64,000 nucleotides of DNA, taken from NCBI RefSeq assembly GCF_030384885.1, contig NZ_CP128613.1, one strand, 5' to 3'. Each line of letters starts with the position of its first letter. Within the stretch, counting starts at the first letter, position 1. Both the position numbers and the translations under genes were made by a program. Below are positions 7,460-10,621 of this stretch, piece after piece. This DNA comes from Escherichia coli (GTDB taxonomy: Bacteria; Pseudomonadota; Gammaproteobacteria; Enterobacterales; Enterobacteriaceae). Under the pieces are notes generated by a model that worked only from the letters and a program-made list of their open reading frames with translations, made no database searches and was not told where the DNA came from.

Positions 7460-8019
7460 TTGATACTATCTTCCTCCATCACAATTTCAGAAATGCACGT
7501 GTGATTTTTTTGCATCCGGCGTTTGGACTATGTGGAGTTCAAGAGTGGGAAAGTTACAAGAGGTTGAGGGGATAATTAAAGGGATGCTTATGACATTAGA
7601 TATCCGGATAGGTACGGATATCGTTGTTATTAAATCTAGTTTATACGTTAAGATGCAGCTACAGCAGAAATTACCACTGTTAATTTTTTCATCGTGAGCC
7701 CTTTTATTTGTACTATTATTTAAAAATGATGTCACTGCACTACAAATACTCATCTAATCAATGAGATTATTTCAAGATGTAAGTTTTAGTTTCTCATTTA
7801 AATTGTGAAGCAGATCCCTCCTTTTATCTGAACTGTTTCTATTGTACACAATGCATGACTATTTTGTGAACGAATATAAATTTGGTAGTCAAATTATATT
7901 AAAGGTTGTTATTTATGATTGACTCATAATTTATTTTTTTAATTTAAATAACCTAATAATAACCATGGAGATTATTTGCATGATATTTGTTTAGACTTGT
8001 TAATGTAATTGAGGTGATT

Positions 8020-8694
8020 TTATTTAATACGCAATATAGCGCCGCTTGATATTAGTTCTATTTTTTTTTGCGTAAGATAGATGAGACAAACTGAGACGCA
8101 TAATGGTTTGCAAGGCTCTAATACTTTGATGTTGAGGATGTGATGGGGCATGTACGTGCATAGTACAATGATGTCCATGCCGGTGTAGATAATCTCCAGG
8201 CTTATCCGGTGCGCCGTAAAACCCCGTCCTTCAGGGCGGGGATATAAGGCGCGGTTTTCCACCTGACCAGGTGTTTGCTGTTGTTCAATGTATTGGCGGA
8301 TGACGGACATTGGCGCACCTCCGCAGCTACTGGCAAAATTGCCAGGACTCCACAAAACGCCTTTGTAGTAATACCTGACTGTAATATCTGGTCGATCTCG
8401 TCGCAGTAACCTACCCGATACGCCTTTGAGGCTGTTTACCAGACTGGATATCGCCAGTTTGGGAGGATAGTTAATTAACAAATGGACGTGATCTGGTTCG
8501 CCATCCATTTCAACCAGTTCAGCTTCAAAATCAGCACATACATTTGAAAAGTAAGTGCGTAGTTTTTCTGTCGCGTCATGGTCAAAAATCTGGCGTCGGT
8601 ATTTGGTGACAAAGACCAGGTGAACATGCATCAGGAAAACACAATGCCTTCCACGCCGGATATCGGTTTCTTTTTTCACAGACCAAAGTATCAT
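8020..8694 (-). CDS. tnpA: IS200/IS605-family HUH (Y1) transposase TnpA; conserved core is about aa 1-145, and the ORF continues a further ~80 codons with no stop
   Basis: HUH motif (DHVHLLINYPP), ...HVHLVFVTKYRRQ... and catalytic-Tyr region ...GGAPMSVIRQYIEQQQ align with IS608/IS200 TnpA; similarity ends near nt 8275. Confidence 0.7.
   Translation of the reverse strand: MILWSVKKETDIRRGRHCVFLMHVHLVFVTKYRRQIFDHDATEKLRTYFSNVCADFEAELVEMDGEPDHVHLLINYPPKLAISSLVNSLKGVSGRLLRRDRPDITVRYYYKGVLWSPGNFASSCGGAPMSVIRQYIEQQQTPGQVENRALYPRPEGRGFTAHRISLEIIYTGMDIIVLCTYMPHHILNIKVLEPCKPLCVSVCLIYLTQKKIELISSGAILRIK
8222..8241 (+). repeat. Left-end subterminal imperfect palindrome (hairpin) of the IS200/IS605 element
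   Basis: ccccgtcc-ttca-gggcgggg: 8-bp stem with one G:T position and a TTCA loop. Confidence 0.6.
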
Positions 8695-8701
8695 TTGACC
8701 T

Positions 8702-9910
8702 GTGAAACGATTACAGGCATTTAAATTCCAGTTAAGACCCGGTGGTCAACAGGAGTGTGAAATGAGGCGCTTCGCAGGCGCATGTCGTTTCGTTTTCAAT
8801 CGTGCTCTGGCGCTTCAGAATGAGAATCATAAGGCCGGTAAGAAATACATCCCTTACGGGAAAATGGCTTCCTGGCTGGTTGAGTGGAAAAATGCCACTG
8901 AAACGCAATGGCTTAAAGATTCGCCCTCACAGCCATTGCAACAGTCACTGAAAGACCTTGAGCGGGCTTACAAAAACTTCTTCCAGAAGCGGGCTGCTTT
9001 TCCCCGATTCAAAAAGCGGGGACAGAATGATGCATTCCACTACCCGCAGGGCGTTAAGCTCGATCAGGAAAACAGCCGTATTTTTCTGCCGAAACTTGGC
9101 TGGATGCGCTACCGGAATAGCCGTCAGGTCACGGGTGTTGTGAAAAATGTCACTGTCAGCCAGTCCTGCGGTAAGTGGTACATCAGTATTCAGACAGAAA
9201 GTGAAGTATCAACTCCGGTTCATCCTTCAGCATCAATGGTCGGGCTGGATGCTGGCGTGGCTAAACTCGCCACGCTGTCAGATGGCACAGTCTTTAAGCC
9301 TGTAAACAGTTTTCAGAAAAACCAGAAGACGCTGGCGAGACTTCAGCGACAGTTAAGCCGCAAGGTCGAATTCAGCAATAACTGGCAGAAGCAGAAACGC
9401 AAAATACAGCGACTGCATTCCCGTATCGCAAATATCCACAGGGACTACCTTCACAAAGTCACAACGACCGTCAGCAAAAACCACGCAATGATAGTCATTG
9501 AGGATTTGAAGGTCAGCAACATGTCAAAGTCAGCAGCGGGTACGGTCAGCCAGCCGGGGCGCAATGTCCGGGCAAAATCAGGTTTAAACCGTTCGATACT
9601 GGATCAGGGCTGGTATGAAATGCGCCGCCAGCTTGAGTACAAGCAGCTCTGGCGTGGCGGTCAGGTGCTTGCTGTTCCGCCAGCGTACACAAGCCAGCGT
9701 TGCGCGTGCTGTGGTCATACAGCGAAAGAAAATCGCCTGTCACAAAGTAAATTCAGATGCCAGGTATGTGGATATACAGCGAACGCCGATGTAAACGGCG
9801 CTCGTAACATTTTAGCGGCGGGGCACGCCGTTCTTGCCTGTGGAGAGATGGTGCAGTCAGGCCGCCCGTTGAAGCAGGAACCCACCGAAATGATTCAGGC
9901 GACAGCCTGA
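8702..9910 (+). CDS. tnpB: IS200/IS605-family TnpB (OrfB; RuvC-like RNA-guided nuclease family), apparently intact
   Basis: 402-aa ORF, GTG start at 8702. N-terminus [13 protein letters not shown].. resembles ISDra2 TnpB; RuvC-I (MVGLDAG), RuvC-II (IVIEDLKV), Cys4 zinc finger (CACCGH...CQVCGY) and RuvC-III ([10 protein letters not shown]) all present. Confidence 0.85.
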
Positions 9911-9970
9911 ACGTAGCAGGGATCCACGTCCTTCAGGGCGTGGAGGATGTCAACAAACAGGTTGAATTAA
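9790..9970 (+). ncRNA. Predicted TnpB-associated omega-RNA (right-end RNA): scaffold over tnpB 3' end plus right-end hairpin, guide from flanking DNA
   Basis: Inferred from the established architecture of TnpB elements; no sequence-level RNA model was fitted and the extent is approximate. Confidence 0.3.
9924..9943 (+). repeat. Right-end subterminal imperfect palindrome (hairpin) of the IS200/IS605 element
   Basis: ccacgtcc-ttca-gggcgtgg: same stem/loop layout as the left-end hairpin, including the G:T position; 14 nt after the tnpB stop. Confidence 0.6.
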
Positions 9971-10621
9971 CTCCGCGCCCTGGTTTTTGACATTACCCAC
10001 CGCGCGCGACACAGGGTGCCAGGTGAACTGGTTTGCTGGAACACAGCCACTGGCAGCAATTTCAGAGGCTTCTTTACCGCTAATCTCTTGCCGCATCCAT
10101 TCCCGCGCAGCTTCTGGCGACAGTACCAGCGGGCGGCGGTCATGAATATCTACCAGACCCTGGTCTGCTGCTGCAGTGACAATTAAAAATCCTTCGGCTT
10201 CGTCACCACGCTCAAACGGTGTGCTACCTATCGCGGCTATAAAAACAGGTTGTCCATCAGCGCGATAGATAAAATAAGGCTGTTTTTTGTCGCCTTCTTT
10301 TTTCCACTCAAACCAGCCATCGGCAAAACAGATTGCCCGACCATGTTGCCAGAGCGGTTTAAACATACGACTGGTTGCCGCAGTTTCTACGCGGGCGTTA
10401 ATCAGCGGCGGTTTATCCCACCATCCGGGAGCATATCCCCAGAAAACCGGATCCAGATGAAGGTGTTCATCACGTTCACTGAGCAGAAGAACTTTGGTTC
10501 CCGGCGCGACGTTGTATCTGCCAATAGGTTCGGGATCGTAGGGAATATCGCGTTCAATATCTTCCGCGAGAAGCGCAAGGTAATCTTCACGCGTTTGGGA
10601 TTGGGTAAAGCGTCCACACAT
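9950..10621 (-). CDS. yedK: SOS-response-associated peptidase (abasic-site processing protein) YedK
   Basis: 223-aa ORF starting MCGRFTQSQTREDYLALLAEDIERDIPYDPEP... (SRAP family, catalytic Cys2); C-terminus ...AELIQPVC sits at the IS right end. Confidence 0.88.
   Translation of the reverse strand: MCGRFTQSQTREDYLALLAEDIERDIPYDPEPIGRYNVAPGTKVLLLSERDEHLHLDPVFWGYAPGWWDKPPLINARVETAATSRMFKPLWQHGRAICFADGWFEWKKEGDKKQPYFIYRADGQPVFIAAIGSTPFERGDEAEGFLIVTAAADQGLVDIHDRRPLVLSPEAAREWMRQEISGKEASEIAASGCVPANQFTWHPVSRAVGNVKNQGAELIQPVC

Follow-up and report, generated by a model that had tools for sequence, protein, structure and literature searches.

An IS609 copy at the yedK locus of Escherichia coli that has lost the tnpA stop codon

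We analysed a stretch of E. coli DNA of 64,000 nucleotides (the window) and found that the insertion element at its yedK locus is one copy of IS609, of the IS200/IS605 family. It is highly likely that the transposase gene of this copy, tnpA, lost its stop codon by a TAG to CAG change at codon 144, and that the stop-less form is an old majority allele which has been shuffled among IS609 copies with a decaying tnpA and an intact tnpB. Here we report the mutation, its direction and its frequency, together with the boundaries of the element and the relaxed constraint on tnpA. What we see is a known element decaying in an ordinary way, with nothing that sets it apart from known kinds of system: a pseudogene that was already annotated carries a common stop-loss allele. 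Literature searches for IS609 and for insQ/TnpB returned no description of the stop-codon allele.

The tnpA reading frame and the loss of its stop codon

The tnpA open reading frame of the window copy occupies 8020..8694 on the minus strand, starts with ATG and encodes 224 aa. The frame has no stop inside the element and runs on to a TAA at 8020-8022, as the first-pass annotation of this DNA had noticed. It is made up of the following parts.

8266..8694, minus strand: tnpA core, codons 1-143, an HUH/Y1 transposase with the HUH histidines H69 and H71 and the catalytic tyrosine Y135
8263..8265, minus strand: tnpA codon 144, CAG (Gln) here, where the ancestral codon is a TAG stop; the change is at base 8265 (plus-strand G, against A in TAG copies)
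8206..8262, minus strand: element-encoded read-through after Gln144, VENRALYPRPEGRGFTAHR, which crosses the left-end hairpin
8020..8205, minus strand: host-encoded tail of 61 codons and the TAA (8020-8022)

The core of the protein matched the full Pfam Y1_Tnp profile (PF01797) at residues 18-139 (8e-40) and the NCBIfam model transpos_IS200 at residues 13-138 (7e-42), with a PDB match to the TnpA of IS608 (E = 1e-19). Its DHVHLL (H69, H71) and RQYIEQQ (Y135) motifs align to DHIHIL and KQYIENQ of IS608 and are invariant in the subfamily protein alignment. Three substitutions are private to the window protein (A105T, Y119N and I129M); Y119 is conserved at >90% in the subfamily, and the aligned residue in IS608 is Cys.

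A protein search found relatives of 80-85% identity in Salmonella, Photorhabdus, Morganella, Klebsiella, Proteus and Yersinia. All 12 homologues compared (138-146 aa; from these six genera and further database entries) end in ...QQQTP[G/S/D], which corresponds to window residue 143. This agrees with the first reading of the sequence, in which similarity to TnpA faded near residues 140-145 and a stop was expected at 8260-8275; codon 144 falls at 8263-8265. At the DNA level, codon 144 is TAG in Salmonella, Photorhabdus and Klebsiella (three contigs in the outgroup comparison) and in E. coli O157, and CAG in the window. Because TAG is found both in the O157 copy and in these relatives, the comparison makes TAG the ancestral state and the native stop one that has been lost through a single T to C transition on the coding strand. 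A point change had been one of the causes first proposed, and the contrast between CAG in the window and TAG in the three outgroup genera and in the O157 copy, with its intact 143-aa TnpA, bears it out. An insertion-junction effect, the other cause put forward for the missing stop, was rejected, as the changed codon lies 57 nt within the element.

In this family the core of the hairpin begins 21 nt after the stop, and the element itself goes on for 57 nt; in Photorhabdus and Klebsiella the spacer and hairpin after TAG are the same as in IS609. There is no second in-frame stop between codon 144 and the element end, and therefore loss of TAG forces read-through across the left end into host DNA. 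The frame is indeed translated through the left-end hairpin (8222-8241), where it reads ...ALYPRPEGRGFTAHR..., and the extension, at first estimated at about 80 codons, comes to 81 (codon 144, 19 in the element and 61 in the flank).

The element, its ends and its insertion site

The ends of the element were placed by comparing the window yedK copy with copies at ytfB (O157), ydcL/ydcO (K-12), yeaQ, a DUF3251 gene near tsx, yfaY, yidH and gltX/yfeD, and with the empty site in strain CFT073.

8206..9953, plus strand: IS609 element, 1748 bp, without target duplication and without terminal inverted repeats; junctions from eight loci and the empty site
8202..8205, plus strand: TTAT target tetranucleotide, host DNA abutting the 5' end of the element, present in the empty site and conserved beside eight different flanks
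8211..8252, plus strand: left-end subterminal imperfect hairpin; core 8222-8241, CCCCGTCC TTCA GGGCGGGG, and outer stem GCGCC/GGCGC (single-stranded DNA fold)
9924..9953, plus strand: right end; hairpin 9924-9943, CCACGTCC TTCA GGGCGTGG, and terminal ...GGATGTCAA

On the left, similarity between the window and the copies at other loci breaks at one point, with TTAT and then CCGGTGCGCC at each locus. On the right, all copies end in ...GGATGTCAA, followed by unrelated sequence. The CFT073 empty site reads ...GGCTTAT and then CAAACAGG (in fuller form, ...CTCCAGGCTTAT and then CAAACAGGTTGAATTA...), and comparison of the filled with the empty site gives an exact insertion 3' of TTAT with zero duplication. 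The shared left and right junctions and the empty site thus set the element at 8206-9953. A true left end lying to the left of 8020, or anywhere beyond 8206, was rejected on the six independent insertion loci and the CFT073 empty site.

The window copy differs from the O157 copy at 38 of 1748 positions (~97.8% identity), and the name IS609 rests on this near-identity, since the TnpA of the O157 copy is named 'IS200/IS605-like element IS609 family transposase' in RefSeq. The O157:H7 reference copy (TnpA WP_000604943.1, 143 aa) has the same 1748-bp length, ends, hairpins, TTAT and tnpB as the window copy, which differs from it in having CAG for TAG at codon 144, the three private amino acid changes and a 224-aa rather than a 143-aa ORF. 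The structural features of the IS200/IS605 family are all present: a Y1_Tnp domain, the HUH motif and tyrosine, hairpins on the same strand, insertion at TTAT without duplication, and tnpB. The right hairpin (9924-9943) is a version of the left one (8222-8241) with two mismatches on the same strand, for which the chance expectation is none. Relatives in Photorhabdus and Klebsiella have kept the left-end hairpin, and the one in Salmonella retains just a diverged, partly recognisable version.

The model system for the structure and mechanism of HUH/Y1 single-strand transposition is IS608 (ISHp608 of Helicobacter pylori; PDB 2A6M, 2VJV), which targets TTAC, terminates in TCAA, and has its tnpA and tnpB genes co-oriented. 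Its transposase belongs to the same TnpA fold family as that of IS609, with the HUH and tyrosine residues aligned, and the two elements share subterminal hairpins on one strand, insertion 3' of a tetranucleotide and a right end in TCAA. The two genes are co-oriented in IS608 but divergent, in the IS605-type arrangement, in IS609, and hence the 3' end of IS609 tnpA abuts the left-end hairpin. The tnpA start (ATG, 8694, minus strand) and the tnpB start (GTG, 8702, plus strand) are 7 bp apart, so that the promoter of each gene must sit inside the coding sequence of the other.

The insertion point lies within the yedK stop codon. In the CFT073 empty site YedK ends in ...IQPV*, with a TGA spanning TTAT and the CA that follows it (L008 2604-2609). 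In the window it ends in ...IQPVC*, the added Cys codon and new TGA coming from the last four bases of the IS right end, TCAA (window 9950-9954, 8202-8205). Window 7900-10050 is a 100% match to E. coli strain 2013C-4282. The yedK insertion is carried by ~79% of complete E. coli genomes and is therefore old.

The read-through extension

The extension adds 20 element-encoded residues (Gln144 and 19 more) and 61 host-encoded residues to the 143-aa core, giving 224 aa. Its element-encoded part is the same in all CAG copies examined, barring single substitutions in two. The host tail, on the other hand, differs at every insertion locus, with lengths of 5, 10, 12, 17, 38, 41, 61 and 157 codons, and at the yedK locus itself a 1-nt indel in the flank shifts the tail frame between strains, giving proteins of 222 aa (cluster P0002) against the 224 aa found here (P0001). 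At the protein level the host-encoded tail shows no conservation. In a flank of this composition it is unusual to find 61 codons without a stop (P ~0.007-0.025, a value to be read in the light of this tail having been singled out for being long), and this length falls inside the spread of the other loci (5-157). The AlphaFold model of the 224-aa TnpA, built on a 23-sequence alignment, was poor (mean pLDDT 46, pTM 0.40); residues 144-224 had a pLDDT of ~25 and no secondary structure, a hint that the tail may be unstructured.

At every insertion the complement of TTAT yields a TAA one base out of the tnpA frame (8202-8208). This TAA would stop the frame used by the copies with a 1-nt deletion (yidH, gltX).

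Decay of tnpA and conservation of tnpB

The second gene of the element is complete in the window.

8702..9910, plus strand: tnpB/insQ, RNA-guided endonuclease, 402 aa, intact

The protein has OrfB_IS605, Cas12f1-like TNB and HTH domains and matched the NCBIfam model guided_TnpB (2e-114). We compared 14 copies from 8 loci (the window and L002-L007, L014-L020). An intact 143-aa tnpA was found in two of them (O157_ytfB and M11_yeaQ); in the other 12 the stop was lost, or the gene was broken by an internal stop (at codon 76 or 96), by a frameshift or by the loss of its start. Stop loss is combined with an internal stop in K-12 (codon 96) and in the copy at the tsx locus (codon 76), TST3 has an internal stop with TAG retained, the frameshifts occur in the yidH and gltX copies, and the start codon is lost in strain W. 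Outside the 14, the tnpA at the yedK locus of TK3896 is also annotated with an internal stop. Three CAG copies are free of any further disabling lesion (window, SCEC_yeaQ and CB209_yfaY).

By Nei-Gojobori counting over 11 distinct sequences with few sites, pN/pS is ~1.4 for tnpA (5 synonymous vs 25 nonsynonymous variant codons) and 0.31-0.39 for tnpB, which keeps its full 402 aa in 14/14 copies. Because of these ratios, and because of the lesions in tnpA as against tnpB intact in every copy, purifying selection on tnpA is undetectable in this comparison and tnpB is constrained. Synonymous diversity is lower in tnpA (0.011) than in tnpB (0.040).

The K-12 copy at ydcL/ydcO (tnpA pseudogene yncK, and insQ) is the same element, with CAG at codon 144 and insQ intact as in the window, and differs in having the added internal stop at codon 96. 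IS609 is reported to be inactive in K-12 (PMC2891674, PMC5009759): its transposase gene there has been reported to carry a stop and to be inactivated (PMC2891674), and IS609 accounted for 0 of 758 new IS insertions in K-12 mutation-accumulation lines (PMC5009759).

Frequency and spread of the CAG and TAG alleles

The stop loss is not private to the window copy. Of 5426 complete E. coli genomes, 4198 carry the CAG allele (6622 places) and 1411 the TAG allele (1583 places). The counts come from 35-nt queries with the SNP in the middle, in which each 28-nt megablast seed covers it; the SNP is 60 nt from the element junction and the counts are pooled over loci. The stop-less CAG is thus the majority IS609 allele in E. 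coli, accounting for ~81% of the copies scored and occurring at no fewer than six loci. The first-pass annotation had raised the question of whether other copies share the long tnpA frame: many E. coli copies do, and the reference copy (O157) and the outgroups do not.

Among the 14 extracted copies, CAG occurs at yedK, ydcL, yeaQ, the tsx-proximal locus and yfaY, and TAG at yedK, ytfB, yeaQ, yidH and gltX; at ytfB, CAG is represented by two read-through proteins in the database, P0010 and P0012. Both alleles are therefore found at three loci, yedK, yeaQ and ytfB. At yeaQ the CAG and TAG copies (SCEC_yeaQ and M11_yeaQ) differ by this base alone across 8206-8642. In the 14-copy element alignment IS609 copies are mosaic, with ends like those of same-locus copies and interiors like those of copies at other loci; TST3_yedK, for example, has 15 differences to K12_ydcL vs 27-29 to other yedK copies. 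This mosaic pattern indicates gene conversion between IS609 copies and recombination between strains. The TST3 yedK copy bears K-12 ydcL-type sequence, including the codon-96 stop.

On the reading that we favour, the TAG to CAG transition (base 8265) removed the tnpA stop, and translation must continue across the left end into adjoining host DNA, through 20 element residues and 61 arbitrary ones. The CAG allele would have spread among copies through gene conversion and between-strain recombination, as one of several lesions in a tnpA that E. coli IS609 copies no longer maintain. We infer that the extended product makes little or no contribution to transposition, or is impaired, that its tail is functionless, and that CAG is a neutral or mildly silencing lesion.

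It is unlikely that TnpA has kept transposase activity in its extended form, with a neutral, tolerated tail, so that stop-less copies transpose themselves and each gain a new C-terminus. H69, H71 and Y135 are intact in the window copy, and three CAG copies carry no other lesion. The TnpA of IS608 (155 aa) also has a natural C-terminal tail that is longer, by ~18 residues past the aligned end of IS609 TnpA; by this analogy a C-terminal extension need not be harmful. The presence of CAG at six or more distinct loci could reflect transposition of a CAG element. However, both alleles occur at each of yedK, yeaQ and ytfB, and IS609 copies are mosaic, and so CAG could equally spread by gene conversion or recombination without transposition; where a CAG element did move, TnpA supplied in trans from a TAG copy would do equally well. 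Purifying selection on tnpA, moreover, is undetectable, and the K-12 lines gave no new IS609 insertions (PMC5009759), although the K-12 copy has an internal stop too.

A selective explanation of the same pattern is very improbable. Stop loss would here act as a silencing switch: the transcript would end at the left hairpin, the resulting non-stop mRNA would undergo tmRNA tagging and degradation, and the change would be favoured for leaving the element immobile but with tnpB and the guide RNA retained. The TAG/CAG site would then switch TnpA on and off, recurrently and under selection, through a non-stop message cleared by tmRNA. If this were true, it would account for the dominance of CAG and for the occurrence of both alleles at single loci on otherwise identical backgrounds, of which the one-base difference at yeaQ across 8206-8642 is the case in point, and E. 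coli, or tnpB with its guide RNA, would gain from an IS609 immobilised yet retained. The frequency of the CAG allele and the conservation of tnpB but not tnpA fit such a switch, as does a UUUUAC after the hairpin on the tnpA strand, where the RNA folds into a stable local structure (-33 kcal/mol, z = -2.2). Nevertheless, a terminator scan made no call of an intrinsic terminator at the left-end hairpin, because the hairpin is followed by 4 U alone. Selection for CAG would also be needless, given that other lesions disable tnpA as well, and the high frequency of CAG is explained by age and by hitch-hiking on near-fixed insertions.

Consequences for annotation

RefSeq annotates 8269-8694 as a pseudogene with a 'missing C-terminus'. 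The stop-loss allele explains this label on most E. coli IS609 tnpA genes, which owe it to a single TAG to CAG change and not to truncation. Likewise, the many 160-254 aa database proteins named 'IS200/IS605 transposases' are read-through artefacts with flank-derived tails. That these many long proteins instead reflect the native layout of the subfamily, or that the long ORF is a sequencing error in this assembly, can be dismissed almost entirely: codon 144 is the end of all outgroup proteins and is TAG in the outgroup DNA, what the long proteins share is limited to the 20 element-encoded residues, after which they diverge by flank, and CAG is present in 4198 independent complete genomes. The unusual subfamily layout suggested at first was rejected on the same ground, since in every relative examined the stop is codon 144, with the hairpin 21 nt further on.

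A decaying tnpA beside a conserved tnpB agrees with the current view of TnpB persisting independently of the transposase, and the E. coli IS609 copies may offer a natural data set for that question. Outside annotation the importance of the allele is small, and it is a minor fact at that level.

Neighbouring features

An Rfam scan of window 7800-10200 gave no match at gathering score. Below that threshold, HgcC scored 21.9 bits and sot0042 18.9 bits at 9783-9966, overlapping the 3' end of tnpB and the right end, and 9783-9966 is the expected place of the TnpB guide (omega) RNA. In strain TK3896, the tnpB at the yedK locus (L013) is shortened to 387 aa, in an annotation that has it overlap yedK, and that copy showed no right-end hairpin motif, which suggests a right-end deletion. 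On the other side of the element, a 1.2-kb segment with an ompC-like porin gene that is present in CFT073 (L008 832-2053) is absent from the window between ybcM and the IS609 site (~7651/7652). The emrE-ybcL-ybcM neighbours resemble a prophage remnant.
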